Part shown: positions 39,379 to 58,290 of the stretch, one piece after another
How positions within the stretch are numbered: position 1 is the first letter of the stretch
How the letters are laid out: each line of letters starts with the position of its first letter
Source of the DNA: an uncultured delta proteobacterium
Lineage (GTDB): Bacteria; Desulfobacterota; WTBG01; CAIYCZ01; CAIRTM01
NCBI GenBank assembly: GCA_963804955.1
Contig: CAWDSQ010000016.1
Span: 32,001 to 96,000 of the forward strand
DNA: 64,000 nucleotides
Direction of reading: 5' to 3'
Notes under the pieces: model-generated
The model's input: the letters and a program-made list of their open reading frames with translations, nothing else
The model's database searches: none
Told to the model about the DNA's origin: nothing
Made by a program: the position numbers and the translations under genes

Positions 39379-39391
39379 TTTCTTCACTTAA

Positions 39392-41967: not shown

Positions 41968-42052
41968 AAAAACAGTGCTGCTGAAACAGAGCGCGTACTT
42001 CCCTGCAGCGCTAAACGTTTAATCAACACAACCATCATAAGGAGAGAAAAGT

Positions 42053-42268: not shown

Positions 42269-42306
42269 TTTTTCGCGACACAGAACCATCATTTCGGAGA
42301 CAGCCC

Positions 42307-43332
42307 ATGGTAACCACGCTTCGAGAAGACCTGCGTGAGGCGATACTCTCCAGGCTCGCCAAGAAACAGAACCCCCTGGAGGGGTTTTACTGCGACGAGG
42401 CGACGCGGGAATCCATACTGGCGATCCTGATCGCCGGCCGGCACCTGCTGCTGGAAGGCCCGCCGGGCACGGGCAAAACCACGGTGGCGCGCATTATCGC
42501 CTCGCTTTTGCCGCCGATGGAAACCGTGGCGGATTGCCGCTACAACTGCTACCCCGCGTCCCCGTCGTGCCCTGACTGCACGGGCCGCAAGAGCCACAAA
42601 AAAATCAAGGTGGCCGGTGCGCAGCGCTTTATCCGCATCCAGGGCTCGCCCGAAATGATGCCCGAGGACCTCATGGGCGATCTTGACCCCGTGCTCGCCA
42701 TGAAGCTCGGCATTCAGGATGCCCGCGCGTTCACGCCCGGTAAAATCCAGAAGGCTAACCGCAAGATTCTTTTCATCGACGAGCTCAACCGCGTGCCCCA
42801 GCGAACGCAGAACACGCTGGTGCAGGTGCTCGAGGAGGGCATCACCACCATCGCCGGCTTTGACCTCACCTCAACGGTCGACACGCTGGTGGTGGCCACG
42901 GAAAACCCCGAGGAATACGCGGGCGCGGAGCGCGTGAGCGAAACCCTCTCGGACCGGTTCGAGCAGGTGCGCATCGGCTACCCCTGCGCCGAGGACGAAG
43001 AGGAGATTATCTCAGCGCTACGGCAAGCGCATCGAAGGCGTGAAGGCAGCCGATGATATTATCCGCCAGTCCGTGGCCATCAGCAATATTGCCCGCAGCA
43101 TGCCCGATGAGACTTGAGCGCCTCCCGAGCGTGCGCGCGACGCTTTCGATTTTCGAACAGTCCCAGTCTCTTGCTCGTCTCAAAGGCGCAAAGTCGGTGA
43201 GCAAAGCTGATGTCGAAACCGCGGCGCGGCGCGTACTGGAAGGCCGCCTTGCGGTGAGCAGCGAAAGCAAGTATTTTGAAAAGCAGGATTTGCTGATCGA
43301 GAAAAATCATCGATCAGTCGAAGAAGAATTAA
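42307..43332 (+). CDS. MoxR/ChlI-like AAA+ ATPase (frameshifts near 43015 and 43305)
   Basis: GPPGTGKT, CRYNC..CPDC insert, MGDLDP, LFIDELNR, SETLSDRF, lid 'ERLPSVRATL'. Confidence 0.85.
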
Positions 43333-46300
43333 TGCCCCTCTTCTGGAGCGGCAGGTTTCAAATCCCGTTTCTCCGGGGGTATGCTTCACATGGTGAGCAA
43401 TGCGATTACGCACCCTCAAGCGCTTCTTTGTTTTAAAGCAGGACGGGCTTAATAACCGCCCTCGTGAGGGGGATACCACCTAACAGCATGGAATATGTGC
43501 CGGGATACTAAATAATTTATCTGTTTGGATACATTCTCGTTGAATTCAGGGCGTTCCGCGCACCAAAATAAAATATGCAGCCATCAATAAACCTCACCAC
43601 ATATGAATCTGCAGCAGGCGCTTCTACGGGGGGTCGGGCTGCAGGGAGCTTGACGCGCAGCTTTTGCGGCGCATGAAACTGCCTGCGCCTTCCGCACTGC
43701 AGCCGGGCCGCTTTTCTTTTGGAGCAGACATCGCGCCGAGCTTGCGGGGGTGGTCCGGCAGTGGATGCACGGCGCATGGCAGCCGCCGAAAAAACCGTTC
43801 CACAAACCCACCCGGGTATCTGGCCCCGCGAGCCCCCGCGGCATGGATGTTCCGTCCTATTCAAAGCGGCTCTGCCGGCTGCGCCACCTTCCGTCATCGC
43901 CGTTGACGCCGCACCTGCAGAGGTCGGCGCTGCACTGCATTACGGCTGCTCCCTGCAGTACGGGCTGCAGCTGCCCGTGCAAGTTGCCTCTGTGTATAAG
44001 CACCACCATCCCGGGGCAGGACATGGAATTCCATGCGGGCGATTTTCTCTGCGAGCTTGCCGTCTGGTGCCTGCAGAATAAAACGCCCCTCATCCCCCAT
44101 CGGCACGCAGCAGCGCATAGTGGCCTCGGAATTCCAGTTTATCTATAACCAGATGATTGCCCGTGCGCAGGATGATTTTGCCGGCCAATCGCGGCAAATC
44201 AAAAAACCCGAGCAGCTTGAAACCCTTGCTGTACAACTTGCGCAACAGGTTTTCAGCTCAGGCATGAGCATCGGGCGCCGAGCGCGAGGACATCATCAAC
44301 CGCGCCTGCTATCTCGGGAGCCGCCTGCTTGATTTGAGCAGGTATCTTTGCGCAACAGGCTACAGGCAGAAACCTGTTCTCCTGCTCTATAAAATGCAGC
44401 TTTCCCTTGATCTGCCGGCCCTGGCGCGCATGTTTTTCTCACCTCCCCTGCGGCGGTTGAAGAAATGTATCAGCCTCTTGACCCCCAGCATGCCTGCACA
44501 TACCGCATGCGCGCACTGCCCTGTGACCGGGAGGCGCCGCCCGTAAAAAAGCATTCAGCCCACAGCGCGAAAATGCAGGCAGCTATCGAAAAATTGCTTG
44601 CCGAACGCATGCAGGAGAAGCTTTCACTTTGCCGACATCGACAGGCTGTGCTCGCAGGTGGCCCTGGCCGTGCGGCAGCATCCGCTGGTGGAGCGGCCCG
44701 CAAGTGTGCGCGGCACCCTTGCCATGCGCGAAATAGCCCAGGGCCTCGGGCCTCATTCGCGGCGCCGTCACCCGCGAAACGCTTGCCAAGGCAGGCTTCT
44801 GTGGCCCTGGCCCACCGCATTCGCCTGGCCCAGGGCGACGACATCTGCATGGAAAGCCTGCTGAAAAGCATTTTCAGCAGCGCCATCTTCGGCATACCGC
44901 TTCCAAAGATGAAGAGCGCGCTGCCGAGCAGCGCCGTCCCCTGACACCCGAAGAGCTGGCACAAGCACTGCAGGGGCTTACTGATGCGGCATTCCGGCAG
45001 CTGGGCCCGGAAGAAGCCCTTCCCACGTCTGACCCCGGCTTTGCCCAGGATGCCATGAACCATCCGCTGGTGCAACAAGCACTGAAGGAGGCCATGGAAA
45101 AAGGGCTCCATGAATGACTCCTATAACGATTATAAAGACCTGCTGCGCGAGCTTGAAGACCGGGGCATGCTTGACATGGCGGATGCATCGAGCATGACCC
45201 TGAGCCAGGACGGGCAGGAGAACTTCAAAGAGAGCCTTGAGGATGCGCTGCGCCGCGGCGAGATTACCCCCGAAGAGCTGGCCGAAGCCCTTAGAAAAAC
45301 GCCCGCAGCATGCCTCCGCCTCCCGGACTGAACGGCGACAAAATGCGCCTGTCGCCGCAGGCGGAAACCGAGCTGATCGCCGAGATGATGGATTTTCAGC
45401 ATCAGGGCCGCTCGGAAAGCACCTCCCTTTGAAGACCTCTACGTGCACTATTCCGTTGGGGAAAATAAAGGCCTTGAGATCGACAAAGAAAAGGTCGATT
45501 ACGACCGCCTTAAAATCATGATCCACGAGCTTGAAAAAAAGGGCGTGCTTGCCATGTCGGGCGAAAAGAAACGGTTCACGCTGTCGCATCTCTCACTTGA
45601 GCGCCTGCTGAAGGGGCTCATCCAGCGGCAGAAGGGGCAAGTCCTGGAAAAACGCGCATTCAAAAAAGATCTCGAGTCGGATAAAACGGATGTGCGCCGC
45701 TACCAGCGGGGTGATGTTTTCAAAAACATATCCATACGCCATACCCTGCGGCGCGTGCTCCAGAAAGGGCAAGTCGTTCGAGGACGTTAATTATACCGAC
45801 CTGCGTGCTTTTGAAAAAAAACCGGCAAACCAGCTTGACATTGCCGTATGCGTCGACATTTCAGCCTCCATGAAGGAAAGCGGCAAGCTGCGGTATGCAA
45901 AAATGGCCATGGCCGAGCTTGCCCGGGCAGCCACTGCCAAAGGTGACCGCATGGGCATCATAGCTTTTTCCAACCTCGGGCAGGTCGTAGAGCCCCTGAC
46001 CGACAAAATAACGCCGCTTATGAATGCCGCCATGACGCTGCGCTCTGAGCAGTACACCAATATCGGCAACGGCCTGCGGGTGGCCCGCCAGATGCTGGAG
46101 AAAGACCGCAACAGCAATGCCAAATTTATTATACTTATTACCGATGGCGAGCCCAATGCCGCCCTGTCCGATGACAGCCGGGGCGACGGTTATTACGCCC
46201 GCGTGGCGGAGTTTTCCCACGGAACTTCTATGGAGGCCAAGCGCGCCATGGGAGCCCAGCATGCCCTGCTGGAGGCCGCAAGAACCCGGCGCAAGCATAT

Positions 46301-46453
46301 GAAAGTTGCGGTTGTCTATATATGCCCGGAAGACAAGGTCGATCCGGAAAGCGAGCGTGTGGCCGCGAAATCGCCCGCAGGGGCGGGGGCAAATTTCACA
46401 GAGTGCGGGCACTGGAACGCCTGCCGCTTGAAGCGCTGGAAACCGTGGCGTAA
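43332..46453 (+). CDS. Large VWA-domain protein, ChlD-like C-terminal half (many frameshifts; N-terminal region uncertain)
   Basis: TAATG coupling to the ATPase; lid-like 'ERPASVRGTL'; DVRRYQRGD...ISIRHTLRR; MIDAS DISASM, TNIG, ITDG. Confidence 0.65.
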
Positions 46454-46504
46454 ACCCCACTACGTGTGAAGCAGTCATATAAAATTGAAAGCATTAAATT
46501 TCCG

Positions 46505-46532
46505 CGTCATCCCGGCGAAAGCCGGTATCCAG
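46505..46532 (+). repeat. CGTC-tagged REP-like palindrome
   Basis: CGTCATCCCGGCGAAAGCCGGTATCCAG; inverted near-copy at 50882-50909. Confidence 0.7.
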
Positions 46533-46593
46533 TTCTCATGCAGGGGCAGGATGTATCGTGCTCCTACTCTGGATTAAGGTTACCAATATCTTC

Positions 46594-46633
46594 AAAAAAA
46601 CAAGGCCCGAAGCCATGCGGCTTCGGGCCTTGT
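46594..46633. terminator. Intrinsic terminator for the AOR operon (convergent genes)
   Basis: AAAAAAACAAGGCCCGAAGCC-ATGC-GGCTTCGGGCCTTGT. Confidence 0.75.
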
Positions 46634-46658
46634 ACGTGTTTCTGCAGATTAACTAATA

Positions 46659-46901
46659 CTACTCGGCCAGAACGGGAAGCAGATAATTAAAACCGTTTTT
46701 GACGGCTTCTTTAGCCTGCTTGCCGCTGATGACCTTCTTCTTCTCAAGATAGTTGACAAGCTTTTCATATCCTTCCAGCAAAATGCGGCGGTGGGTCTTT
46801 TCGTCGACCACGTTCTTGTCTTTCAGATAATCCAGAACGTCGAGCGTCTTGTCGTCTAGGTCTATGAACTTCTTGGCCTGCGCCTGTGTCATGATTGCCA
46901 T
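46659..46901 (-). CDS. Small 80-aa helical two-repeat protein in the AOR operon
   Basis: RBS AAGGAG then MAIMTQAQAKK...; internal repeat LDYLKDKNVV / VNYLEKKKVI. Confidence 0.75.
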   Translation of the reverse strand: MAIMTQAQAKKFIDLDDKTLDVLDYLKDKNVVDEKTHRRILLEGYEKLVNYLEKKKVISGKQAKEAVKNGFNYLLPVLAE

Positions 46902-46927
46902 AATATATCTCCTTTCGCTTATCAGAA

Positions 46928-48678
46928 TTAATAGTAGTATTTTTGTTTTTTCTTTCCAGCGTCGGACATATACTTCGGCTCTGAGCGGAGCGAGGTCTTT
47001 TGCAACGTAGTCAAGGCCGAGCATCTTCAGTCTCTTTTCCGAGGGGAAGCCGGTCTTGGCATCCCAGTCACGATACTTGTAGTACTTTTGCAGCATATCG
47101 TTGAGCGGGAAAACGACGCCGACGTTGGTCTGATAGTCCACGCCCTGGGGCATGGGCTCTTTGAGGAAACGCTCGGGAACCGTATCCTCGCGGGCGCCGG
47201 ACATGCAGCGCGTCCAGTACGCTCGTCCAAGCTGGAAAATACGCTCGCCGATCTCCTGGAACTCTTCCTCGGTGAAGTCAAGGCCGCGGTGCAGGCGTTC
47301 AGGTACTCTACCTGATCGGGGGTAAGCACGGCGTATGACCAGTGCGTGGTGAAACAGCACACCTGGGAACGGTGACTTTGTGTAGCCTTCTGGTTTTCTT
47401 CGTCGAGCAGTGCGGGCTTGTTGGCAGTCGTGGTGGGCTTTGCGCCGCGCTCGTAGCCGAGCAGCTTGGTGTTCAGGCCCGTGTACAGAGCGCCTGAAAG
47501 CTCGCAGCGAGCACAGTGAACGAAGATGATCGCAGCCGCCGCGGGTGCCCTGCGCAAATGACAGGCCGTAGCCGAAACCAAGGCCGCGGGGGTCATCGCC
47601 CGGCAGCGTCATGCCGCGGGTTGTGATGCTGTAATAGTGCGCATCTTGGGGCAGGCCCAGTTTGTCGGCAGCACGGTCTGCGCCTTCGGCAAGAATTGCG
47701 CCGAAGCCTTCTCTTTTTGCTATCATGGGGATAAGCTTATCCATAACCTCTTCATTACCCCATTCAAGCTCAAGACCAGCCAGTTCCTGGTGGTGATGAA
47801 GCCTCTCTGATACCATTCCATGGCAGTCGAGATAACACCGCCGCACTCGATGGCATCCATACCGTAATCATTGGTCAGCCGGGCATTGTGCCAGATATCG
47901 TTGGCGTCTTCGATGATACCGCAGCGAGCATGCGTGCTGGGGAACTGCATGCTCGTATTCGGGACCGCCGAACTCTTCACCTGCCCATTTGCCTTCCTGA
48001 TCTGCGTGAAACGGCCGCAACAGATGGGGCATGAAAAGCAGCCTTCGCGGTGCTTCAGCACGGTGGCGGCGATACCCTTCAGATTCTTGGAGCCGATAAC
48101 GCCGCCCGTGCCGGTACGGCCTGCAGCCCGCCAAACGTCATTGAAGGTACAGGCAAAACGCACCATGTTCTCACCTGCGGGGCCGATCAGCATGATGTGA
48201 ATGTCCTCGTCCCCGAGCTCTTCCTTAATCATCTGGTCCGCCTCGCGGGGGAACTTGCCCCAGAGGTGGCGGGCGTCGCGAATCTCGACCTTGTCGTCAT
48301 CGATCCAGATATACACGGGGTTCTTTGCCTTGCCCTGAACGATGATCTGGTCATAGCCGGCGAACTTTACTTCTGCGCCCCAGTGGCCGCCCATGTTGCC
48401 GAATCGCCGAAGCCGCCCGTGAGCGGGCTTTTGCAGGAAACGGTCACGCGGCCCGTTGAGGGGGCTGCGGTGCCGCTGATCGGGGCCCATGCCGAAGCAG
48501 ACGCGCGCTTCGGGATCATAGGGATCCAAGGTGCGCGGGCACCTCGTTATAGATTACGTCTGAATTGAAACCACGGCCGCCGATCCATTTGCGCCGGTAC
48601 TCATAGGAAAGGGGCTCTTTCTTGATTTCACCTGTGGTGAGATTAACTCTGAGTCTTTGTCCTGCCCCATCCGTACAT
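46928..48678 (-). CDS. aor: Tungsten-containing aldehyde:ferredoxin oxidoreductase family protein (AOR/WOR large subunit); frameshifted, apparent internal gap
   Basis: MYGW...RVNLTTG, WIGGRG, MGGHWGAEVKFAGYD, IGPAGEN, AAGRTG...GSKNLKG, CFSCPICC, GPEYE, YGMDAI, DDPRG, RGGCDH, YYKYRDWD. Confidence 0.88.
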
Positions 48679-48680
48679 AA

Positions 48681-49187
48681 TTAGGCCTCCTCTCCAACAC
48701 TTAGCGGCTTTAAGTCGTTCTTCCAGTTTTTCTCTGCGCTTGGCCTTGAAGGCGACGGTCGGCGTCGTGTAGGTAGATGGCGCCGCTCGGGCACCAGTCG
48801 GCGCAGACAGGGGCCTTCGGCCCGGCCTTCGCACAGAGTCGCACTTGAAGGCTTTGCCGGTTTTATAGTGCATGTTGATGGCGCCGAAAGGGGCATGCCA
48901 TCGCGCACTCTTTGCAGCCGATGCACTTATTGGCATCGATTTTGGTGATTCCTGCCGCGGCGTCCATGGCGCAGGCGCCGGTGGGGCACACATTGGCGCA
49001 GCGGCGCGTCGGTGCAGGCGTCGCAGCCCACGACAAAGGACTCGCCGAATCTCTCGTTACGAACACATGCGATGCGGGAAACCACCTTGCCGCATTCGCC
49101 GTCATGATACAGGGAACACCCTACGACGCAGCTTCTACAGCCGCTGCATTTTTCCTGGTGGTACACCAAGACTTTTTCATTGCTCAT
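48681..49187 (-). CDS. 4Fe-4S dicluster protein (AOR small subunit; DmsB/CooF-like), frameshifted
   Basis: CSGCRSCVVGC, CDACTDAPCANVCP, CIGCKECAMACPFG, KCD. Confidence 0.85.
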
Positions 49188-49324
49188 GTCAGTTACCCTC
49201 CTTTCAAAGGGATCAAAAAAAAGAAACTCTAGCCAGTATTGCCTTTAGTTTCCGGTTCCCCCACGGGAACCGTCGGTGAAAAAAAACACCTCCTTTCATT
49301 TTTTTTATTTTTTACAGAAACTCC

Positions 49325-49433
49325 AAAAAAAAGCCTGAAGGCACAGCTGTGCCTTCAGGCTTCCTTTGCAAAATTGGCGGGCCAAGCACACTGCTTGAGC
49401 CTTATCGAGTCCGCTTTAGAGCGGACTCGGAAG
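49325..49433 (-). ncRNA. Variant Moco/Wco-like riboswitch candidate with fused intrinsic terminator (copy 1)
   Basis: CTTCCGAGTCCGCTCTAAAGCGGACTCGATAAGGCTCAAGCAGTGTGCTTGGCCCGCCAATTTTGCAAAGGAAG + GCCTGAAGGCAC...GTGCCTTCAGGC-T8. Confidence 0.7.
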
Positions 49434-49717
49434 TCCTTAAAGTATGAGCATGTTTAATTACTTTTTTATGACGCAGAAGTCAATGGTTTTTTCACAACTT
49501 AGAAGGAGGTATATTTCAGCCTGATCAGCACCCATGCCTGTCCATCCAACCCGGGTATCGCACCCGCAAAAGCTCTGTTTGTCGTCATATGTTTTTTTGC
49601 TGCGCAGCTTACATCCTTTCTCTCTGTCCAGCCTTTCGGGAAACCTGCCACAGGCTGATAGCTGGCAGGCTTCATTAGAAGCGGCTTTTATGCAGTGTAT
49701 TTGTCTTTTTTTTCAGG

Positions 49718-50674
49718 TCACTGCTTTTCCTGCTGCAGTTTGCTGTCTGCCATTGAATCCAGGATGGCGACATCGGCTTTTTCGCGGAGCGCGTCGGTGA
49801 ACGTATGGAGAAGCGCCACTGAGCACATTTCATAGAGCCTGGCCTTCAGATCTTCTTCAATCAGCTCAAAGGGCCGCTTCCTGCCGCCCTCAATAATGGT
49901 CTTCACCATAAGAACATGCAGGCCTTCATCGGTTCGGATCACGCGGGAAATCTCGCCTTCCTTCATGCGGAAAGCAATGCCGTCAAGGATCGGATGAAAC
50001 TGGCCGGGCGTGACAAAGCCGAGGTTTGCGCCCTTGATCTCAGTGCCGTTCAGAGAGCCTTCGGCAGCGACTTTCTCGAAAGCCGCAGGGTCTGCAGCAA
50101 GCTTTTCAAGCTCCTGACGCACTTTTTTCTCTTCGGCGGGGTCGGCATAGCGGTCCAGCCTCTGCATGACGTGCAGCACGTTACGGACCTCGGGCCCCTG
50201 CATTTCATCAGGATGCTCATCATAATACCGCCGCGCCTCCTGCGAGGTCACGGGCTTTCGCTTGCCCTCCACGGCTGAAGCTGCGGTTTTATTTATTATG
50301 ATATCTTTCTGCACCTGGTCGCGGAACTCCGCCGGACTCAGCCCCGTCATCACGAGCATGGCCTTGAACTGCTGCTCGCTGTCGAATTCGGCAATCGAGC
50401 CGGCGGTCACCGTGGCAATTTCCTCATCCGTGGCGGCAATGCCCGTGCGGCAGCCTTCCTGGTACAGCAGCTCCCGCATAACAAGCTTATCGATCGCATG
50501 CTTGCGGGCAGCATACATTTCCTGCTGCGGCAGGCGCACTTTGCCCTTGCTGTCCTTGTACGGATCAAGCAGGGTCTGCAGGGCCGCTGCCACCTGGTAT
50601 TCGCTGATAACAACGCCATTGACCCGTGCGACAGGGGTCTTTTTTTGAGCTGGATTAATTGTATTTTGTTCCAT
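49718..50674 (-). CDS. SurA/PpiC-type peptidylprolyl isomerase (no obvious signal peptide)
   Basis: VARVNG, SurA N-domain, GANLGFV, EISRVIRTDEGLHVL. Confidence 0.8.
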   Translation of the reverse strand: MEQNTINPAQKKTPVARVNGVVISEYQVAAALQTLLDPYKDSKGKVRLPQQEMYAARKHAIDKLVMRELLYQEGCRTGIAATDEEIATVTAGSIAEFDSEQQFKAMLVMTGLSPAEFRDQVQKDIIINKTAASAVEGKRKPVTSQEARRYYDEHPDEMQGPEVRNVLHVMQRLDRYADPAEEKKVRQELEKLAADPAAFEKVAAEGSLNGTEIKGANLGFVTPGQFHPILDGIAFRMKEGEISRVIRTDEGLHVLMVKTIIEGGRKRPFELIEEDLKARLYEMCSVALLHTFTDALREKADVAILDSMADSKLQQEKQ

Positions 50675-50820
50675 ATGTTTTACCTGCGCAATTATTATTT
50701 ATGTGCCGCTCACACTTCATACAGTAACATATGTCTCAAATACTCCAGCATGTCCACAAAAAATTGTTCTCCTCGACGCGCTGGGGCAACACGTGAAAAG
50801 TGTACAAGATTCATAGTCCA

Positions 50821-50909
50821 GTAGGGGCAGACCTGCGTGTCTGCCAGAGGTCCGCACACCGGTCTGCCCCTACATAAAATTCTGGATGCCGGCTTTCGCC
50901 GGTATGACG
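50821..50909. repeat. GTAG REP doublet followed by a CGTC-type REP
   Basis: GTAGGGGCAGACCTGCGTGTCTGCC...GGTCTGCCCCTAC; CTGGATGCCGGCTTTCGCCGGTATGACG. Confidence 0.75.
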
Positions 50910-50997
50910 ATCTTGTTGGATTTTCGACTTTTTACGAGGGCAGCAAACCTGCTTTTTAATTTATTGAACCTTGAACACAAGACCCTGTAGTGAAGTA

Positions 50998-52296
50998 TCA
51001 GGCGCCTGTCCTTGACACAAACCCGCTCAACTGGTTAACCACAGGGAGAAGCTGCGTCTGAGGCTTTTTGATAAATTCTTTCCACGGCGTCTTTCCGACA
51101 ATAGCACCCCGGACAATGCCTGCTCCGTCCACATTGCCGACAGCCATAAAAGAAACAGGGATGCCGTCTTTCAGCTTTACCTTCTGGTAGATGCTATGAC
51201 TCTTAAAGGTGACTTCTTCAATGTCATCACCCTCTGTCTGAACATCGCCGATAGCAGTTATCCACATCTCGTAGAAGTCAACGCTGTTCATGGGGATATT
51301 GCCCTCATAGGTCCTCTGCTGCCCGGACATGTTGCACGCTGCGATTCTTCCCTGCGCTGCCGCCACTGGCCAGATGGCATTGTATATCCATTCCTTGCTG
51401 ACTATATGACGCGAGCGGCATACATCTCCTGCAGCATAGACATCCTCAACCGTGGTACGCTGGCAATCATCAACAGAGATTATCCGGTCCACCTTAACAT
51501 CTGTGCCTTCAAGAAAGTCCGTGTTTGCTTTAACACCAACAGAGGCAACAATAAAATCAGCTTCTTCTTCTCCGCCGTTTTTATACGTCACAACATACTT
51601 ATTTCCCTGTTTCCGCGTGTCAATAACAGAATTGTGAAGCTCAATATCAAGCAGTTCATGCCGGGTCATCCGTTCCCGAACCCGGGCGCTTGCCTCAAGA
51701 TCAGTCATGCGGCCAAGCACTGTTGGCAGCAGCTCGACTACCTTGACCTGCACTCCCTGCTTCACAAGACCATATGCTGTTTTCAGCCCGACAAATCCTG
51801 CGCCGATAATAATTGCTTTTTTACCCTTCTTTGCCCAGCCTTTCAGTTTGTTTGAATCATCATAATTCCTCATCCCTATAATACCTTCCGGGTCATAGGG
51901 GAAGCTTTTGAGAAAAATGGGTGATGAGCCTGTTGCTACAAGCAGGGTATCATAAGAAATCTTTTTCGTTCTTCCATTCTGTTTTGCATAGACAATCCGG
52001 TTTTTAGCATCGACTTTCTCAGCCCGGGTAGAAAGGTTCAGGTCTATATCACGACCAGTGTACCATTTTTCAGAATGTGACAGAAGGTGGCTCCGGGTAA
52101 CCATACCGCCAAGATAATAGGTAATAAGGCACCGTGAATAAGAGGGCACCGCCTCTTCACCAAGAATAACAATTTTATCTTCAGGATTCAGTGTCCGCAG
52201 AGTATCTGCCGCGGTAACAGCTGCAATGCAGTTACCGATAATAACATGCTGCCGCGCACTTTTTTTTACTTTGGTTTTATTGGCCTGTATTTTCAT
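50998..52296 (-). CDS. FAD/NAD(P)-dependent oxidoreductase (NirB-N/NROR/AorC-like)
   Basis: IIGN...YSRCL, LLVATGS, IIGAGFVG, VYAAGDV, WPVAAAQG. Confidence 0.9.
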   Translation of the reverse strand: MKIQANKTKVKKSARQHVIIGNCIAAVTAADTLRTLNPEDKIVILGEEAVPSYSRCLITYYLGGMVTRSHLLSHSEKWYTGRDIDLNLSTRAEKVDAKNRIVYAKQNGRTKKISYDTLLVATGSSPIFLKSFPYDPEGIIGMRNYDDSNKLKGWAKKGKKAIIIGAGFVGLKTAYGLVKQGVQVKVVELLPTVLGRMTDLEASARVRERMTRHELLDIELHNSVIDTRKQGNKYVVTYKNGGEEEADFIVASVGVKANTDFLEGTDVKVDRIISVDDCQRTTVEDVYAAGDVCRSRHIVSKEWIYNAIWPVAAAQGRIAACNMSGQQRTYEGNIPMNSVDFYEMWITAIGDVQTEGDDIEEVTFKSHSIYQKVKLKDGIPVSFMAVGNVDGAGIVRGAIVGKTPWKEFIKKPQTQLLPVVNQLSGFVSRTGA

Positions 52297-52772
52297 CTTC
52301 GTGTTATCCCCCGTATCTCTTTTATTTTTCTATTTCTTCTTTTTTTCACTGTCGTGCTAAAATCATCAAAAAACAGAGCTTCCCTGTCGCATACGGCAAC
52401 GCAGGGAGGATTATCTTTTTCTCCGCAAATCAGCGTGCACTTAAAAGCTTTTTCAAGGCTCATAACCGTCTTTATTGCTCCATGGGGACATACCATGTTG
52501 CACATAAAGCACCCAATGCACCTTTTTTCATCCTGAATAATAATTCCATCGTTGCCGCACTTCAGTGATTCACCAATGCAGGCATCCACGCAGGGTGTGT
52601 CTTCGCAGTGCTTGCACAGGCGAAGGAAAGGCCCCTGCGGGCTCTGGTACACTTTGATAAATGGTGCATACCCGGCAGAGTCGCTGCTTGATTTGCTGCA
52701 TTGTGCAGAGCAGGCGACTTCGCACTGGCGGCACACATCGCACTTATCAGGTCTAAAAACAAATGCTTTCAT
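52293..52772 (-). CDS. 4Fe-4S dicluster protein (CooF/HydN/AorA-like)
   Basis: CDVCRQCEVAC, CKHCEDTPCVDAC, CIGCFMCNMVCPHG, KCTLIC...CVAVC. Confidence 0.92.
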   Translation of the reverse strand: MKAFVFRPDKCDVCRQCEVACSAQCSKSSSDSAGYAPFIKVYQSPQGPFLRLCKHCEDTPCVDACIGESLKCGNDGIIIQDEKRCIGCFMCNMVCPHGAIKTVMSLEKAFKCTLICGEKDNPPCVAVCDREALFFDDFSTTVKKRRNRKIKEIRGITRR

Positions 52773-53415
52773 ATGTGTCTCCTCTACTTCAAATTATATT
52801 AATATCCTCTATGGCCATAAGAATACCATAGCTGTAAATTATTAAATGGCTGTCGTACAACTGATTCAAAAGGCGCTACTGTAATTGTACTAACTAAGAT
52901 TTAATCAGGCTTTTTGCGTGGAATACAGCGGGCAGGCTTTTTATCCCAATACCTCGACATTATCCACTTCCAATAAAACTAAGGGCAAGCACATTTGCCA
53001 TGCAGACATCTTTTGGCGCTTACTTAGCATACTAATAGTTTACCATGGCATCGAATATTGTGTCAACACGTAAAATTGTACGGGAACCGCTTACGCGATA
53101 TAAAATATTGATATTACTTGTTTAATATTTAAAAATACCTTCCGGCAAATATTGCAAAGGCCTTATTGTTCCCCAACTTTACCGGAGCGTGTTACAATGA
53201 AATAATGGTTATTCCGGGGAGCTGAAGGCGACGAAGAATCTCGTTCTTTAATCGACACAGCCTCTGAGGGAGAGGAGTAAGGTAAGGGTGTGAAAAAGTT
53301 TATTTTTAATAATTCATGAGCACCCTCTCTTCAAGAGAGGGAAATAATTTTATACATACACATCAGCGGACAACATGCCTCGTAATAGTACGTTTACTCT
53401 GCCGGGCTTTTATGT

Positions 53416-54207
53416 TTATTTCGCCATATCCCTATGGGAAAACTTTTGAGTGAGGTTGCGCCTTCGGCATTTCACGCACACATCTTTAAAGTCATCGGAT
53501 AAGTCTTTCAGCTTTCTGTGCACCTCATTTATGAGTGGCTCGGGTGCGACAACCTCTCCGCATATTCTGCACGTATGAAGCTCCACCGAAGTCTGCGACC
53601 AGGTTTCAACTGTCCGTGTGCCTTTCCTGTCGGAAATTTTTATTAATTTTGTCGGGCATACATCCGCGCATGCCGTACAGCCAAAGCATGTATCGGAAGG
53701 CTCCTGGTAGGCAGTGTTAACCCTTGTTTCCGGGCCGCGAGAGATAAAGTTTATAACCCCGGCCCCCACCGCCTCATTACAGACACGCACACACAAGCCG
53801 CAGAGCACGCACTTTTCTTCGGGTGCGCCCTTCTTTTTCTCCTCTTTGCGGGCAAAGCGGGACTCGGTGATACCGTATTTTGCCGCCATTTCCCTGATAT
53901 GATCAGAGTCAGGCGCCTCAGCAAGATAGAGCTCCATGAGGCCTTTCCTGATACCCCTGATTTCCGCAGTATCCGTTTTTACCTCAAGGCCCTCACTTGC
54001 TGCAAGGGTGCATGACGTAGTCATGCCCTTTCTGCCGCCAGCCACAACCTCTACCATGCACAGCCTGCATGCGCCAAAGGCGGCAAGCGCCTCATGATAG
54101 CAGAGGGCCGGAATGTCAATGCCTCCGCTTTTTGCAGCTTTAAGCACCGAGTCACCCTGCTCGGCCTGAATTTTTTTTCCATCAATAATAATTGTTACAT
54201 TCTTCAT
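53416..54207 (-). CDS. NuoG/HydA N-terminal-like 2Fe-2S/4Fe-4S protein without catalytic domain (BamI/BfuA-like)
   Basis: IPALC...GACRLC...SC; CVLCGLCVRVC; CFGCTACADVCP; C-terminal CRIC...CVKC. Confidence 0.88.
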   Translation of the reverse strand: MKNVTIIIDGKKIQAEQGDSVLKAAKSGGIDIPALCYHEALAAFGACRLCMVEVVAGGRKGMTTSCTLAASEGLEVKTDTAEIRGIRKGLMELYLAEAPDSDHIREMAAKYGITESRFARKEEKKKGAPEEKCVLCGLCVRVCNEAVGAGVINFISRGPETRVNTAYQEPSDTCFGCTACADVCPTKLIKISDRKGTRTVETWSQTSVELHTCRICGEVVAPEPLINEVHRKLKDLSDDFKDVCVKCRRRNLTQKFSHRDMAK

Positions 54208-54214
54208 AACGGTA

Positions 54215-57200
54215 TCAACCTTCTTTCACATCACATCGTAAGCATCGGGTAACTTCCACCCTGGCTACATCAGGGGGATAGCACAGGGTAACTTCATCAA
54301 AGCTGCATCGTCGTGCTTCAGGGGAAACCATGGGCATGGGATTACGGTTTCCTCCCTGGGGCTCAACTGAAACCTCATTGTTGTACCTTACTTTCTTCAA
54401 CAACTCGCTTAGCCGGTCTTTGCCGGTAAGCTTTTTGTCAACAGCCATGGCAAACCTCTTGCCCTGTCCCATGGCGCCGCTCACCGTTAAAGGACCGGTC
54501 ACAAGATCGCCCCCGGCATACACACCGGAGATATTTGTTTCAAGGGTGAATGGGTCTACGGCAATAGTGCCGTTGCGGTTCAGTGTGACACCAATCCTGC
54601 CGATAAAATCAGAATCACACACCTGGCCGATGGCGGCAATTACCGTGTCACAGTCATAGGTGATTGTCTCATTATCGGACACCGGCACCCTCCTGCCTGC
54701 AAGGTCATAGTCACCGGGCCGCATCCTTGTGACAATAATGCCTTTTACCCTGCCGCTGCGTGCGAGTATTTTATGCGGACCAACAAGGGTCACAATCTTA
54801 ATTCCTTCTTCCTCTGCCTGGCTGATTTCTTCTTCTTCTGCAGGCATATCAGCCTTTTCGCGGCGGTAGAGAATGGTTACATCAGCGCCGAGGCGCTTTG
54901 CTACACGTGCTGAATCCATTGCCACGTTTCCACCGCCGATGACCACGGTTTTAGCCCCTACGGCAACATCTTTGCCAAGATTGACATCGCGGAGAAACTC
55001 AACGCCGCTCAGCACGCCCAGTGCTTCCTCGCCCTGAACCCGAAGCGGACTTTCTTTCTGGGCGCCGATGGCAAGAAAGATCGCATCATGCTCCTTTTTA
55101 AGCGTCCGCAGGTTCTTATCCCTGCCAACGGTTGTATTAAATTTAAAGGTAACTCCAAGCTTCTTAATCAGCTCAACTTCCTGATTCACCACCTTCTTGG
55201 GAAGTCGGAATTCCGGAATACCCCAGGTCAGCATGCCGCCGGCTGATGGACAGGCATCATACACCGTGACTTTATGGCCAAGCCGGGCAAGGTAGTATGC
55301 AGCGGTTAGGCCTGCAGGTCCTGCACCCACGATACCTATCTTTTTACGGGTTGGTTTTAACTTCCGCGGCTCAACCTTCCGCAGTTTCTTTGCCTTTCCG
55401 TTGTTAAACATGTAATCAGCAACAAACCGGTGAACTTCCCGCGTGGAAACCGTATCATCAACCTCATTGCGTCTGCACCTGCCCTGGCAGGGATGATGGC
55501 ATACGCGACCCGTGCTTGCCGGAAGGGGATTATCCTGAAGGATGAATTCATAGGCATCGGCAATCCTCCCTTCCTTGAGAAGGGTCAAATACCCGGGAAT
55601 GTTCATGTTGATCGGGCAGGCATTTTCACAAGGCGCAACAAACAGGCTTGCGCATGCTCCTGCCTGGCACCGGTTGTTCCTGATATGGTTTTCATATTCA
55701 TTCTTAAAATATCTAAGTGTCGTAAGAACCGGGTTTGGTGCGCTCTGGCCCAGACCGCACAGGGACGTTTTTTTAATAAGATTGCCGAGCTCCTCAAGTA
55801 CGGACAGATCCTCCATCTTCCCTTTGCCGTTGCAGATGTCAGTAAGAAGGGCAAGCATATGCTTGAGGCCTTCCCGGCAGGGTGCGCACTTGCCGCAAGA
55901 CTCTTCCTTGGTAAAATCAACAAAGTAGCGTGCCGTGTCAACCATGCAGGTGTCTTCATCCACCACAACCACACCGCCGGATCCCATAATGGAGCCAAGC
56001 TTTGTCAGGCTTTCATAATCAATTGGTGACTCAAAGTATGGCGCGGGAATACAGCCGCCAGATGGGCCTCCTGTCTGCACTGCTTTAATCTGCCGGCCCT
56101 CTACGCCGCCGCCGCCGATGTCATACACAAGGGTCTTCAATGACGTGCCGAAAGCAATTTCAGCAAGCCCTGCCTGGCTTATTTTGCCGACAAGGGAGAG
56201 CACCTTGGTGCCCTTGCTTGTCTCGGTACCGGTCTGGCTGAACCATGCCCCGCCCCGGGATATAATAACGGGGATATTGCACCAAGTCTCAACATTGTTG
56301 ATGTTTGTTGGTTTACCCCAGAGGCCTTTTTCTGCGGGAAACGGTGGGCGGCTACGGGAGCGGCCGGCAAAGCCCTCTATGGAGGATATCAGGGCTGTTT
56401 CCTCGCCGCACACAAATGCGCCGGCGCCTTTCACCATAATAATATCAAAAGAGAAGCCTGAACCGAGTATGTTTTTCCCCAGGAACCCATATGCCCGCAG
56501 CTGCTTAAGCGCATTCTGCAGCCGCTTGATTGCCAGCGGATATTCTTCGCGAATATAAATGATGCCTTCACTTGCCCCGATTGCATATGCGCCGATGATC
56601 ATACCCTCTAGCAGCATGCACGGGTCGCTTTCCATTTCATTGCGGTTCATATAGGCGCCGGGATCGCCTTCATCAGCATTGCAGATGATATATTTCTTTT
56701 CCCCTGCGGCATTGCGGGCAAACTTCCATTTCTGGCCCGTCGGGAAGCCTGCGCCGCCTCGTCCGCGAAGCCCTGCTTTAAGCACTTCATCAATAATCGC
56801 TTCAGGGGTCATAGCCGTGAGTGCTGTGTGCAGGGCTGAGAATCCGCCAACACCAATATACTCATCAATATCTTCAGGGTTGATAAACCCCGTATTTCTC
56901 AAAATAATCTTTGTCTGCTTTGAGAAAAACGGCACGTCGGCATAGGCCGTGATGTCGGCAAAACCTTTGCCATACTCAAGGACTGCGCCTTTTGTAATGT
57001 GATCCCATCTCTCAACCCGGCAGAGGGCTTTTTCCCGGCAGACATCATTTTTGACAAGCTTGTCAAGTATGGCCTTTGCATCTTCGGGCACAACACCTGA
57101 ATAAATAATCATCGGCATATCAGGAATGCTTACATTTACCAGGGGCTCCCTGGTGCAGTAGCCGATGCAGCCAACCTTGGTAAGCACCACATCAAGCTTT

Positions 57201-57373
57201 CTGCTCTTGATCTCTTCTTCCAGCGCGCGCATCACTTTATCTGCGCCTGCGGCAATTCCGCAGCTGGCGTAGCCCACTGCAATTCGGGGCTTTCCAGGGA
57301 AAATCTTCTTTAACCCTTCGTCTTTAATCTGCTTTAGATATGCTTGATGATGTAGTTTCACTTTTCTTCCCAC
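54215..57373 (-). CDS. NuoF/HydB-like FMN-NADH subunit fused to a GltD/NfnB-like FAD-NADP(H) domain
   Basis: Trx-like 2Fe-2S N-terminus; GRGGAGFPTG, NADEGDPGA, FVCGEETAL, ESCGKCAPC; then CENACP...GRVCHHPC, GAGPAG, GGGNVAMD, YRR, CLRCD. Confidence 0.92.
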   Translation of the reverse strand: MGRKVKLHHQAYLKQIKDEGLKKIFPGKPRIAVGYASCGIAAGADKVMRALEEEIKSRKLDVVLTKVGCIGYCTREPLVNVSIPDMPMIIYSGVVPEDAKAILDKLVKNDVCREKALCRVERWDHITKGAVLEYGKGFADITAYADVPFFSKQTKIILRNTGFINPEDIDEYIGVGGFSALHTALTAMTPEAIIDEVLKAGLRGRGGAGFPTGQKWKFARNAAGEKKYIICNADEGDPGAYMNRNEMESDPCMLLEGMIIGAYAIGASEGIIYIREEYPLAIKRLQNALKQLRAYGFLGKNILGSGFSFDIIMVKGAGAFVCGEETALISSIEGFAGRSRSRPPFPAEKGLWGKPTNINNVETWCNIPVIISRGGAWFSQTGTETSKGTKVLSLVGKISQAGLAEIAFGTSLKTLVYDIGGGGVEGRQIKAVQTGGPSGGCIPAPYFESPIDYESLTKLGSIMGSGGVVVVDEDTCMVDTARYFVDFTKEESCGKCAPCREGLKHMLALLTDICNGKGKMEDLSVLEELGNLIKKTSLCGLGQSAPNPVLTTLRYFKNEYENHIRNNRCQAGACASLFVAPCENACPINMNIPGYLTLLKEGRIADAYEFILQDNPLPASTGRVCHHPCQGRCRRNEVDDTVSTREVHRFVADYMFNNGKAKKLRKVEPRKLKPTRKKIGIVGAGPAGLTAAYYLARLGHKVTVYDACPSAGGMLTWGIPEFRLPKKVVNQEVELIKKLGVTFKFNTTVGRDKNLRTLKKEHDAIFLAIGAQKESPLRVQGEEALGVLSGVEFLRDVNLGKDVAVGAKTVVIGGGNVAMDSARVAKRLGADVTILYRREKADMPAEEEEISQAEEEGIKIVTLVGPHKILARSGRVKGIIVTRMRPGDYDLAGRRVPVSDNETITYDCDTVIAAIGQVCDSDFIGRIGVTLNRNGTIAVDPFTLETNISGVYAGGDLVTGPLTVSGAMGQGKRFAMAVDKKLTGKDRLSELLKKVRYNNEVSVEPQGGNRNPMPMVSPEARRCSFDEVTLCYPPDVARVEVTRCLRCDVKEG

Positions 57374-57840
57374 TCATATTGTTTCAGAATTTCAGGTAGT
57401 TTTTTAGGCGTTAAATAGCCATAAATAGTGCCGTCAACCATCATCACCGGCGCAAGACTGCAACACCCGAGACAGCGGGTGCTTTCAATCGTAAACAGCT
57501 TGTCATCGGTTGTGATTGACTTTTCATTTCTTTCTTCATGCCTAATCTTTAAAAGATCAAGCATGGCAGCCTTAAGCCTTGGCCCGCCTCGAACATGGCA
57601 ACTTGTACCTTCACAAACGGTGATTATGTGCTTACCCCGGGGTTTCAGGCTGAAGGCAGCATAAAACGTGCAGACGCTGAAGAGCTGAGAAAACGGAACC
57701 CCCATCTTCTCCCCCACATACTGCATTGCTTCTTTTGGCACATACCCTTCCTCTTCCTGAATTGCCTCCAGTGTGGACAAAACCTGCCCGGGCATATCCA
57801 CATACTGCTCAATAATTTTATCCAGTTTTCTTGCATCCAT
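57358..57840 (-). CDS. NuoE/HydC-like 2Fe-2S subunit
   Basis: VCTFY...VCEGTSCHVRG...CLGCCSLAP. Confidence 0.95.
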   Translation of the reverse strand: MDARKLDKIIEQYVDMPGQVLSTLEAIQEEEGYVPKEAMQYVGEKMGVPFSQLFSVCTFYAAFSLKPRGKHIITVCEGTSCHVRGGPRLKAAMLDLLKIRHEERNEKSITTDDKLFTIESTRCLGCCSLAPVMMVDGTIYGYLTPKKLPEILKQYEWEEK

Positions 57841-58078
57841 GGCTTACGTCTCTACTTTTGAATTAATACATTGATAAGACGAACAAATCAAAAAATCAGC
57901 TTTCCATTTATTTGTTCACACCACTCTACAAAGAACACCAGGGGGAATACGCCGGCATTCAAAAATCAGGCTGTCAATGTCTGATATCCTGCGGGTAAGC
58001 GGGGGCGACGAGAACTACCTCTTGTCCGTCACCAGTCCGATCCACCACCCGACAACAAACCATCGCAAAAAACTGTCG

Positions 58079-58184
58079 AAAAAAGCCTGAAGACACATCC
58101 CGATAATCTTCAGGCTTCCTTTGCACTATGGCGGGCCGGATATCTATCCGGCCTTTTCGGCCCACACCTAAAGGAACTCAGAAA
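58079..58184 (-). ncRNA. Variant Moco/Wco-like riboswitch candidate with fused intrinsic terminator (copy 2)
   Basis: TTTCTGAGTTCC...GGGCCGAAAAGGCCGGATAGATATCCGGCCCGCCATAGTGCAAAGGAAG + GCCTGAAGA...TCTTCAGGC-T6. Confidence 0.65.
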
Positions 58185-58290
58185 TCCCTATAAAGTAAGG
58201 TTTTTGTATATTTCAAAATATTAATCGTTTGTATATAAAACCAGCGTAACGCTGTCAACTTTTTTTATCATATTTCTTCCCTAGTCACCA

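Follow-up and report, generated by a model that had tools for sequence, protein, structure and literature searches.

The window analysed here is a 64,000-nucleotide stretch of contig CAWDSQ010000016.1, and the host of the locus is a sediment bacterium of the Thermodesulfobacteriota. The analysis established which genes are present and their homologies, together with the structure of the riboswitch, synteny and phylogeny. Read 5' to 3' on the minus strand, a three-gene Bfu module is followed by a polyferredoxin, an AorC-like flavoprotein, a PPIase, a riboswitch, an FeS subunit, an AOR and an 80-aa open reading frame. The features are as follows.

58113..58189, minus strand: P3-less Moco/Tuco-class riboswitch aptamer in the leader of the Bfu module (62.3 bits, E 1.8e-18, with R1, the covariance model of this analysis, this copy being outside its training set)
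58076..58122, minus strand: intrinsic terminator hairpin and U-tract, identified from the sequence, its base overlapping the 3' strand of P1
57358..57840, minus strand: BfuC, NuoE-like [2Fe-2S] subunit, 160 aa (PF01257, E 1.5e-45)
54215..57373, minus strand: BfuB, NuoF-like protein fused to a GltD/NfnL-like module, 1052 aa (Pfam and PDB matches)
53416..54207, minus strand: BfuA, WorA-like short A subunit, 263 aa (best PDB match 9mqx_A)
52293..52772, minus strand: polyferredoxin Fer4_159, WorS/HycB/AorA-like, 159 aa (Pfam Fer4_11)
50998..52296, minus strand: AorC-like FAD/NAD(P)H flavoprotein, 432 aa (best PDB match 8c0z_E, E 1.5e-41)
49718..50674, minus strand: SurA-like PPIase, 318 aa (Pfam)
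49358..49438, minus strand: riboswitch of the same class in the FeS-AOR leader (R1, 61.0 bits)
48685..49187, minus strand: WorS/AorA-like FeS subunit of the AOR (frameshift-aware alignment, 5 frameshifts)
46931..48678, minus strand: AOR, WorL/AorB-like tungsten subunit (frameshift-aware alignment, 10 frameshifts)
46659..46901, minus strand: intact 80-aa protein conserved 3' of the AOR (no family found)

The original prediction, that a split, co-regulated oxidoreductase is encoded here by two operons, is partly supported: the genes and their shared leader are real, but the reading frames, the gene inventory and the account of the leader had to be corrected. The second operon does consist of NuoE-, NuoF- and NuoG-N-like genes without a hydrogenase or FDH domain according to Pfam, and the leaders of the two units are homologous (72% identity, both recovered by R1). 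The FeS, AOR and 80-aa genes of the first operon are present, but the FeS and AOR reading frames are not open, being interrupted by 15 small indels. Three genes between the units, encoding the Fer4 polyferredoxin, the AorC-like flavoprotein and the SurA-like PPIase, had been overlooked. The Bfu module and the FeS-AOR genes form two units separated by about 4 kb and by these three genes, which counts against a link; the WorS-WorL-type genes lie outside the bfuABC cluster, in their own riboswitch-led unit downstream.

Frameshift-aware alignment of the FeS and AOR genes to intact orthologues revealed no in-frame stops. Orthologues of the FeS subunit are intact at 166 aa in two same-genus genomes (G002, G003), and its best PDB match is WorS (8e-34), with AorA at 8e-29. 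An intact 654-aa AOR is likewise found in same-genus genomes, and the G002 protein matches 1aor (2.5e-142), WorL (9mqx_D, 7e-123) and AorB (9e-98). The 80-aa protein is 87-90% identical to the copies in G001-G003 and 51% identical to that of locus L015; NCBIfam and Atlas searches with it returned no match. The disruption belongs to a patch of single-base insertions at about 43,012-49,520, where the same insertions appear against each of three same-genus genomes and also disrupt the AOR leader as well as unrelated genes of the MoxR/VWA type. The PPIase gene contains no non-triplet indels, and the next two genes contain small compensating pairs only. An upstream methyltransferase-like gene is also spread over three frames, and from this gene alone the patch may begin at about 39.4 kb. 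Contigs from four other metagenomes omit the same letters. The broken frames are most likely an assembly error and not a split or dead gene, and users of this assembly should be aware that its indel-rich patch can be mistaken for split genes.

If the AOR and FeS genes were instead true pseudogenes, with 15 frameshifts and a deletion of 76 codons, there would be no functional link between AOR and module in this organism. We consider this very unlikely. Apart from the disrupted frames of the deposited sequence, it can draw on a 228-bp in-frame gap in the AOR at about 48066-48070, which removes sequence present in all compared relatives and has 3-nt microhomology at its junction, and on a search for the source reads, in which every public run contained at most 11% of the sampled words. 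Against it, insertions far outnumber small deletions relative to G002 (17 events versus 3 across the 80-aa, AOR and FeS genes, window 46658-49002), the opposite of the natural deletion bias of bacterial gene decay. In addition, there are no in-frame stops, dN/dS versus G002 is 0.10, compared with 0.08 between the two intact genes, and like insertions hit unrelated genes and a non-coding leader within one bounded patch ending at about 49.5 kb.

The Bfu module has the core features of the family. PF01257, PF01512 and PF10589 are all present in BfuC and BfuB, and NuoE/HoxE NCBIfam models match BfuC below their cut-offs. The NuoF-like, FMN/NADH part of BfuB spans residues about 30-578 and is covered over residues 30-578 by PDB homologues of BfuB, including NfnB (9n5u_B). 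Its bit scores are 573 with WorB and 673 with NfnB, so it is not especially close to WorB. Alignments to BfuB chains stop at residue ~578-584, and the B3/B4 ferredoxin-reducing domain is absent; residues 567-971 match Fer4_20 (DPD_II) and Pyr_redox_2, with DPD_II and its 2x[4Fe-4S] at residues 567-659 and the FAD/NAD(P) domain at 678-971. NfnA (9n5u_A), StnC (8oh5_C) and NfnL (5jca_L) cover residues 579-1050. BfuA carries FeS domains only, with no Fe_hyd_lg_C domain found by Pfam, and aligns to 9mqx_A with residues 4-256 on 5-242 of 247 (E 1.1e-40). Both CxxC pairs of its C-terminal zinc finger align to WorA (CRICG...CVKCRRR), and its basic terminal segment and C-terminal helix align to the WorA adaptor helix.

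From these homologies, the locus looks like a variant of the recently solved WorABCSL enzyme type of Acetomicrobium mobile (9MQX, PMC12318220). Homologues of all five subunit types occur in the window: WorS, WorL, WorB and a NuoE-like WorC equivalent are all matched, and WorA tops the PDB matches of BfuA with its zinc finger and docking helix included. In WorA, the C-terminal helix recruits WorS, and the zinc finger and adaptor helix have been described (PMC12318220). The window differs in that its BfuB has exchanged the B3/B4 ferredoxin domain for a GltD/NfnL-like FAD-NAD(P)H module and that its genes are split over two units. The same domain swap, in which DPD_II and FAD/NAD(P) replace B3/B4, characterizes the sub-type I BfuB of group A3 [FeFe]-hydrogenases (Zheng & Huang 2024, PMC11406978). 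There, however, the A subunit is an H-cluster HydA, whereas that of the window is a short WorA-like adaptor; the Fe_hyd_lg_C domain that the window BfuA lacks is present in loci L084 and L069. In the literature, we found no report of a NuoF-GltD fusion with a tungsten enzyme, the fusion being known for [FeFe]-hydrogenases.

Judging from its sequence and strong covariation, the leader shared by the two units is a P3-less riboswitch of the Moco/Tuco class. In a 21-sequence alignment, 19 pairs were recovered with 97% of cells paired and compensatory changes in 8; none of 500 shuffled controls reached the observed score, and slid controls collapsed. The class shares with the Moco RNA motif (RF01055) the core CCGAG...CC-GCC...AAAGGA and helices P1, P2 and P4, but differs in lacking P3, in its short P2 and in the replacement of the small CC/GG helix by GC/GC. 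The absence of P3 is reportedly a mark of association with the tungsten cofactor in the original description of the Moco motif. This well-supported subclass escapes the Rfam model: the intact G002 copy of the AOR leader (79.7 bits with R1) aligns to the whole of RF01055 at 32.7 bits (E 2e-4), below the gathering score of 36, and neither window copy was matched in an RF01055 search at E<=10. The AOR-leader copy of the window holds extra bases of the error patch (insertions at 49399-49452). In the Bfu leader, CUGAG replaces CCGAG and P2 is weak; the change of a nearly invariant core base together with two non-standard P2 pairs counts against a functional link. The minimum free energy fold of this leader displays an extended terminator.

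A scan of the host's own genome with RF01055 recovered three canonical copies only. Strong R1 matches in the same genome also number only three, preceding the AOR, the Bfu module and a TAT-signal protein gene. The latter has a SECIS-like match ~630 nt further on (33.3 bits, below the Rfam gathering score of 63), and we read it from sequence as a putative selenocysteine formate dehydrogenase gene. Among relatives, the leader of the module in G020 carries the same riboswitch (57.7 bits). It is absent from three of the five close module orthologues (L018, L020 and L022).

The genes between the two units offer this AOR another potential partner. The stop of Fer4_159 overlaps the start of the AorC-like gene, and the PPIase travels with this pair in relatives (synteny in L020, L022 and L111). 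Fer4_159 is 33% identical to the FeS subunit of the AOR and matches HycB4, WorS (1.4e-14) and AorA (5e-10) in the PDB, and the top NCBIfam match of the AorC-like protein is PadH (220 bits, below cut-off). Orthologues of the AorC-like gene occur in 16 of 31 genomes and, in five of them (G000, G003, G005, G012 and G013), adjoin the AOR operon or lie within a few kb of it. By its sequence neighbourhood, the AorA/AorC-like pair is a nearer and more widely conserved candidate for the output arm of this AOR than the Bfu module. The proposal that the orphan module is the output arm of the AOR gains from its Bfu-type core and WorA-like A subunit, but has to share the field with this nearer candidate. 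As in AorABC, the N-type WOR of Aromatoleum aromaticum (8C0Z), AorA-, AorB- and AorC-like proteins are encoded in the locus, a subunit set recognized by homology and neighbourhood only (PDB matches 8c0z_A, 8c0z_C and 8c0z_E). Unlike in AorABC, a second polyferredoxin accompanies the AorC-like gene and the gene order differs, with the AorC-like unit upstream of the AOR, the PPIase and riboswitch in between, and a Bfu module added.

Distribution and phylogeny give a divided picture of the module. The AOR operon is widespread, with matches in 20 or more of 30 relatives, whereas an orthologue of the module (>=73% identity) occurs in only four of the 30, which counts against a link; none was found in four same-genus genomes that are 76-90% complete. 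In four of 80 fetched loci (L053 and L060-L062), an AOR gene sits directly upstream of the genes for NuoE, the NuoF::GltD fusion and BfuA, with an FeS gene ahead of the AOR in L060-L062; the sequence of L053 begins inside the AOR gene. In a quick NuoF tree of 74 rows, these four loci and L051 form the sister clade of the window clade (SH-aLRT 89, each clade 100). The placement of the NuoF part, proposed as a check, came out in favour of the prediction, the nearest relatives being modules clustered with FeS-AOR genes. The module-linked AOR of L060-L062 is a paralogue, 33-37% identical to that of the window, with no close orthologue found in the host's own genome, and the sister-clade BfuA proteins have no zinc-finger cysteines, which counts against the link. 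The GltD fusion is not confined to this system, as HydA and CODH partners occur in other loci, HydA in L067-L069, L077, L080, L083-L085, L088, L090-L092 and L097. The tree separates a 44-row group containing the window clade (support 99) from a 30-row group with the HydA-linked fusions (support 99). Modules found with other enzymes and not with this AOR, which had been named as evidence that would tell against the prediction, occur among distant homologues only and not in the nearest clade.

These patterns bear on a different assignment of the electron-output arm. The real arm of the AOR could be the AorC-like flavoprotein, in an AorABC-type, NAD(P)+-reducing N-type WOR, with the Bfu module a later insertion that forms a flavin/FeS-only, NAD(P)H-converting complex with Fer4_159-AorC or serves another enzyme. 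We regard this as rather unlikely. It accords with the AorC match and distribution given above, with the basic C-terminal helix of the WorS homologue Fer4_159, with the position of the module directly upstream of Fer4_159-AorC-PPIase in G007 and G009, and with G003, where the Fer4_159-AorC pair has its own riboswitch copy (75.2 bits) and no Bfu module. It accords less well with G020, in which riboswitch, module and PPIase occur without an AorC-like gene (E<=1e-100), or with the sister clade, which is operon-linked to AORs and not to AorC; moreover, a flavin-only complex has no obvious reason to be controlled by a tungsten/molybdenum cofactor switch. The two arms are also compatible, since both plugs could serve one AOR filament.

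A further alternative is that the module works independently of the AOR to balance redox pools. It would then be a stand-alone, Nfn/Stn-like transhydrogenase whose topology is swapped, the GltD part binding NADPH, the FMN site NADH and the A branch free ferredoxin or flavodoxin. Like NfnABC/StnABC (9N5U, 8OH5), which provide the best matches to both halves of the fusion (NfnB, NfnA and StnC), the module combines a BfuBC core with a GltD/NfnL-like NADPH module and so holds all of their cofactor modules. Acidobacteriaceae commonly carry fusion modules whose BfuA is short and which have no catalytic gene beside them (14 tree rows), the 10 kb around the module of L018 contain neither FeS nor AOR nor AorC genes, and, as noted, three of five close orthologues have no riboswitch. 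Still, we judge this quite unlikely. In NfnABC/Stn the GltD module resides in BfuA and BfuB keeps its ferredoxin domain (PMC9304861), whereas here the module replaces the B3/B4 ferredoxin-binding domain of BfuB, and BfuA is a bare adaptor that retains the WorA-type docking zinc finger and helix. A Tuco/Moco-class leader precedes the module in two genomes, and the acidobacterial BfuA differs in its NADH-G_4Fe-4S_3 domain and identity of only ~30% (the short, 241-aa form was inspected in L073 only).

Docking of BfuA on the FeS subunit was examined with a predicted complex, using a same-genus stand-in for the FeS subunit and with a like complex already solved; the model scored 0.75 versus 0.00 for the best control. 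Of 157 solved complexes, 116 reached this mark, as did 2 of 215 mismatched pairs. Contact agreement between runs was at least 77%, partner pLDDT was at least 79, and the modelled interface joins BfuA 220-257 to FeS 40-53 and 84-104. The outcome favours the proposed pairing but is tempered by the stand-in and by the solved complex, as the score may reflect memory of 9MQX, and the model does not separate the FeS subunit of the AOR from its homologue Fer4_159 as partner.

Bfu-type enzymes are a large and recently recognised family of electron-bifurcating complexes. The reading we favour, at about even chances, is that the locus encodes a tungsten aldehyde:acceptor oxidoreductase system of exchangeable parts, a catalytic pair with two output plugs, controlled by two P3-less riboswitch copies. 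The catalytic unit would be the WorSL/AorAB-like polyferredoxin and AOR, followed by the 80-aa protein. One plug would be the AorC-like FAD flavoprotein with its own polyferredoxin (N-type, AorABC-like) and the other the Bfu core of BfuC, BfuB and BfuA. We infer a physical complex in which the zinc finger and C-terminal helix of BfuA would dock on a WorS-type polyferredoxin, as in WorABCSL; the FeS subunit and Fer4_159 are both candidates for that role. Because the B3/B4 domain is replaced by the GltD/NfnL-like module, the low-potential branch of BfuB would probably end in NADP(H) and not in free ferredoxin, and with these putative cofactor specificities aldehyde oxidation would be coupled with NAD+ and NADP+ reduction. 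The riboswitch would presumably turn the genes on when the cofactor is present. The E. limosum enzyme is described as being under tungstopyranopterin riboswitch control (PMC12318220).

A stronger form of this proposal, which we put forward as doubtful, is a ferredoxin-free tungsten enzyme: a Bfu-plugged WorSL filament in which an NfnL-like FAD replaces ferredoxin, with NADH and NADPH formed in an obligate 1:1 ratio, perhaps a second bifurcation site based on FAD, an AorC-type plug that could share the filament, and a regulon governed by a tungsten-cofactor ON-riboswitch. If true, it would add a new functional class to the Bfu family and give sub-type I BfuB a testable role.

The role of the widespread BfuB::GltD swap has been called untested (PMC11406978), and its combination with a tungsten AOR provides a chemically simple, assayable case for asking whether NAD+ and NADP+ are jointly required for aldehyde oxidation and whether the enzyme can do without ferredoxin. 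The listing of Wor-Bfu systems in PMC9304861 names Synergistetes and Firmicutes only, and the present locus would extend them to Thermodesulfobacteriota. The contiguous FeS-AOR-BfuC-BfuB::GltD-BfuA clusters of L060-L062 are cleaner targets for expression than the genes of the window.

The genes under study run along the minus strand from about 58.2 to 46.7 kb of the window, in a genome of 4.26 Mb (36 contigs, 87% complete), and the closest related loci come from Thermodesulfobacteriota MAGs. The original prediction gave the range 46659-57840, whose ends coincide exactly with the stop of the 80-aa ORF and the start of the NuoE-like gene. In gene order, the features are:

about 58.2 kb, minus: leader RNA
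minus, after the leader RNA: NuoE-like gene (BfuC), 160 aa
minus, after BfuC: NuoF-like protein fused to a GltD/NfnL-like part (BfuB::GltD), 1052 aa
minus, after the fusion: NuoG-N-like protein (BfuA), 263 aa, followed by a 640-nt gap
minus: polyferredoxin (Fer4_159), 159 aa, its stop overlapping the start of the next gene
minus, between polyferredoxin and PPIase: pyridine-nucleotide flavoprotein (AorC-like), 432 aa
minus, 3' of the flavoprotein and 5' of the second leader: SurA-like PPIase
minus, down to 46.7 kb: second leader, then FeS gene, AOR gene and 80-aa ORF (p80)

A promoter and terminator scan gave counts no higher than in shuffles; a promoter-like site (10/12) at 53066-53037, 5' of Fer4_159, is a hint only.

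Neither the FeS nor the AOR protein is readable in any single frame of the window. Frameshift-aware alignment of intact orthologues against the DNA required five shifts in the FeS gene and ten shifts plus a 76-codon gap in the AOR gene, with no in-frame stops; 447 of 576 aligned AOR residues were identical to a different-family orthologue, and the same ten shift sites were recovered with a same-genus guide. DNA alignments with three same-genus relatives (G001-G003) located single-base insertions at positions common to all three comparisons between about 43,012 and 49,520, a patch that hits unrelated MoxR/VWA-type genes, the AOR operon and the operon's non-coding leader. In the same alignments the PPIase gene had no non-triplet indels, and the next two genes had small compensating pairs only. 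Across p80, AOR and FeS (46658-49002), 17 insertion events and 3 small deletions separate the window from G002, dN/dS is 0.10 for window versus G002 and 0.08 between the two intact genes, and the same letters are absent from contigs of four other metagenomes. Because the pattern is insertion-only, without stops or excess amino-acid change, and confined to one bounded patch across gene types, we are fairly confident that the broken frames reflect an unpolished stretch of assembly rather than decay. An AOR truly dead in this genome, which would not exclude other readings, is improbable on the same evidence; the 228 bp missing in frame from the AOR at about 48066, which may be a true deletion or a further error, are present in all relatives compared.

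The original prediction had named large and small AOR subunits; G002 and G003 each encode an intact 654-aa AOR, a 166-aa FeS protein and an 80-aa protein. A split or large-plus-small AOR and programmed frameshifting were dropped in favor of an assembly error patch on the strength of the alignments, the dN/dS values and the insertions common to relatives. Homopolymer slippage was ruled out, since the contexts of the shift sites are not homopolymers. A search for the source reads found at most 11% of the sampled words in any one public sequencing run, and a genome-wide ORF-coverage scan for further error patches (34 of 1407 3-kb bins low) was not discriminating at this G+C. The wider indel-rich stretch, about 39400-49520, carries mostly single-base insertions, roughly 45 of them, and is probably an unpolished assembly segment, making any split-gene call within it suspect. 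It also breaks the following genes:

40271-41291: methyltransferase-like gene, in three frames
about 43.0-46.4 kb: MoxR/VWA-type genes

The subunits of the module resemble those of the solved complex WorABCSL. The best solved relative of BfuA is WorA (9MQX; E 1.1e-40, residues 4-256 against 5-242 of 247), in an alignment that takes in both zinc-finger CxxC pairs and the basic C-terminal segment. The available text of PMC12318220 confirms 9MQX as WorABCSL and describes a WorA helix that recruits WorS, plugging the bifurcating core onto the WorSL nanowire. Likewise, the FeS subunit of the AOR best matches WorS (8e-34), followed by AorA (8e-29), and the AOR itself matches Pyrococcus furiosus AOR, WorL and AorB. 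Within the fusion protein, residues 30-578 (the NuoF part) match the BfuB-type proteins NfnB, HydB, StnB and WorB, and residues 579-1050 resemble the NADPH modules found in NfnA, StnC and NfnL. Hence, the ferredoxin-reducing B3/B4 domain of BfuB has been replaced by two domains, DPD_II 2x[4Fe-4S] and FAD/NAD(P). PMC11406978 describes this very swap in [FeFe]-hydrogenases, as their "sub-type I BfuB", and calls it untested. Since the ferredoxin domain is replaced, the low-potential branch would probably end in NADP(H). The accessible literature yielded no published case of a tungsten enzyme paired with a BfuB::GltD module; a search for a NuoF-GltD fusion with an AOR gave one unrelated paper, and such a fusion is not mentioned in the available text of PMC9304861, PMC12318220 and PMC6405883, whose supplementary figures or tables might list such clusters.

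Docking of the 263-aa BfuA onto the FeS subunit was examined by complex prediction. Window BfuA (alignment of 7) was paired with the FeS protein of G002 (alignment of 15), used as a stand-in because the window copy is frameshifted. The best of three controls scored 0.00 and the pair itself 0.75. Of 157 solved complexes, 116 attain the mark of 0.75, as do 2 of 215 mismatched pairs. Runs agreed in at least 77% of contacts, with partner pLDDT of at least 79, and the predicted interface joins BfuA 220-257 with FeS 40-53 and 84-104. The result counts as likeness only, and may reproduce a structure known to the predictor, because the similar complex 9MQX is already solved; the paralogous Fer4_159 could also pass as a docking partner.

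Fer4_159 is homologous to WorS, HycB and AorA and shares 33% identity with the FeS subunit of the AOR, and the 432-aa flavoprotein that follows it has as its best solved relative AorC of the Aromatoleum aromaticum AorABC complex (E 1.5e-41). This pair was overlooked in the original prediction, and the AorC-like orthologue is more widespread than the module, occurring in 16 of 31 genomes; it adjoins or lies near the AOR operon in the window's own genome (G000) and in G003, G005, G012 and G013, and in G003 the pair has its own riboswitch copy and no Bfu module. At least 20 of the 30 relatives have a match to the AOR operon, whereas a module orthologue (at least 73% identity) occurs in only 4 of 30 (G006, G007, G009 and G020) and was not found in four same-genus genomes, 76-90% complete. 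Hence, the AOR can do without the module. Where present, the module precedes Fer4_159, AorC and PPIase genes without a riboswitch in G007 and G009, in G020 a riboswitch precedes it and PPIase follows, and in G006 it stands alone. The module, then, is accessory and has repeatedly come to lie next to the AorC-type plug. The G020 module (L019, L021), from another family, is 89-92% identical to that of the window, compared with 73-77% for same-family orthologues. This, with none found in the four same-genus genomes, suggests a possible recent horizontal transfer of the module together with its leader.

Partners of the fusion were assigned from tblastn and Pfam matches among 80 loci retrieved with the fusion protein as query. 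The partner is HydA in Bacteroidota, Omnitrophota, Spirochaetota and Akkermansiaceae and CooF-CooS in a single Anaerolineae locus; in Acidobacteriaceae the fusion is accompanied by a short BfuA, and no catalytic gene lies beside it. Four loci (L053, L060, L061, L062) have an AOR directly 5' of BfuC, BfuB::GltD and BfuA. A FeS gene precedes the AOR in L060-L062, and L053 begins inside the AOR gene; in L061 and L062 an orthologue of the window's FeS-AOR-80-aa operon lies just 5' of this cluster. In a quick maximum-likelihood tree built from 74 rows of the NuoF part, the window clade and the AOR-linked clade (5 rows and support 100 each) are sisters (SH-aLRT 89). A 44-row group that also takes in CODH-linked modules contains both (support 99), and the HydA and Acidobacteria fusions are grouped apart from it, in 30 rows (support 99). 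The Anaerolineae locus (L024:6589-14887) is a CooF-CooS-BfuC-BfuB-BfuA-CooC (Codh-Bfu) cluster with the GltD fusion; Codh-Bfu clusters of Methanomicrobiales, including complete Methanospirillum genomes, are without it (e.g., L035:6969-13338).

The AOR next to the modules of the AOR-linked loci is a paralogue, 33-37% identical to that of the window. The many AOR paralogues in G000 include no close orthologue of the module-linked AOR (best 33% identity), and BfuA of the sister clade is without the zinc-finger cysteines. As the likeliest reading, at about even odds, the module would be a Wor-Bfu-type plug whose BfuB is of sub-type I and which serves the riboswitch-controlled AOR system together with an AorC-type plug. 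A less probable reading, set against the AOR-linked loci and in line with the wider distribution of the pair, makes the AorC pair the AOR's only arm, the module working with Fer4_159-AorC or something else. A stand-alone Nfn-like transhydrogenase is less probable still; the solitary module of G006 and the Nfn-like matches would fit it, and the WorA likeness of BfuA would not. The 80-aa protein (46659-46901, minus), always 3' of this AOR type and with orthologues in L110, L111, L113, L061 and L062, had no family match in NCBIfam or Atlas; it may be a small subunit or act in maturation.

The module and AOR leaders are 72% identical when aligned. Rfam gave only chance matches on these two leaders and detected only canonical Moco riboswitches in G000. 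The canonical and P3-less copies elsewhere in the genome are:

39268-39388, minus: canonical Moco riboswitch with P3 (RF01055, 38.5 bits, above the gathering score), 5' of a moaA-like gene at 38214-39203
G000:C16:130145-130266 and 134028-134149: two further canonical copies (RF01055)
G000:C13:109854-109928 (L114:1855-1929): third P3-less copy, 78.2 bits, 5' of a TAT-signal protein gene
L114:2559-2617: SECIS-like element (RF01989, 33.3 bits, gathering score 63), about 630 nt beyond the C13 copy

Both classes therefore occur in G000, and the C13 gene probably encodes a formate dehydrogenase with selenocysteine and either tungsten or molybdenum. The intact AOR leader of G002 aligns, without a P3 stem, along the entire Moco model (32.7 bits, gathering score 36). 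In 31 genomes a pattern search returned 28 matches, and 21 distinct aptamers were aligned, leaving out two module leaders and the error-laden window AOR copy. In this alignment 97% of cells pair in P1-P2-P4 and a 2-bp helix, compensatory changes affect 8 of 19 pairs, none of 500 shuffles matched the observed values, and slid controls collapsed. The covariance model built from these aptamers (R1) scored the window module leader, outside the training set, at 62.3 bits, the error-laden AOR leader at 61.0, the G020 module leader at 57.7, and three training members and the G003 copy 5' of Fer4_159 (also outside the set) at 75-82. Only three strong R1 matches occur in G000, namely the two leaders and the C13 copy; a candidate 5' of an AOR paralogue at C5, with only 16.8 bits, was not accepted. 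The module leader carries CUGAG instead of CCGAG and two non-standard P2 pairs. Of three leaders folded, the module leader and the C13 copy have MFE structures that pull the P1 3' strand into the terminator base; the structure of the G002 AOR leader is different there. We therefore infer that ligand binding would weaken termination, as in an ON switch. The available text of PMC12318220 places Eubacterium limosum WorABCSL under tungstopyranopterin riboswitch control. In L126 (G013:C107), tandem P3-less copies lie 140 nt apart 5' of one AOR operon.
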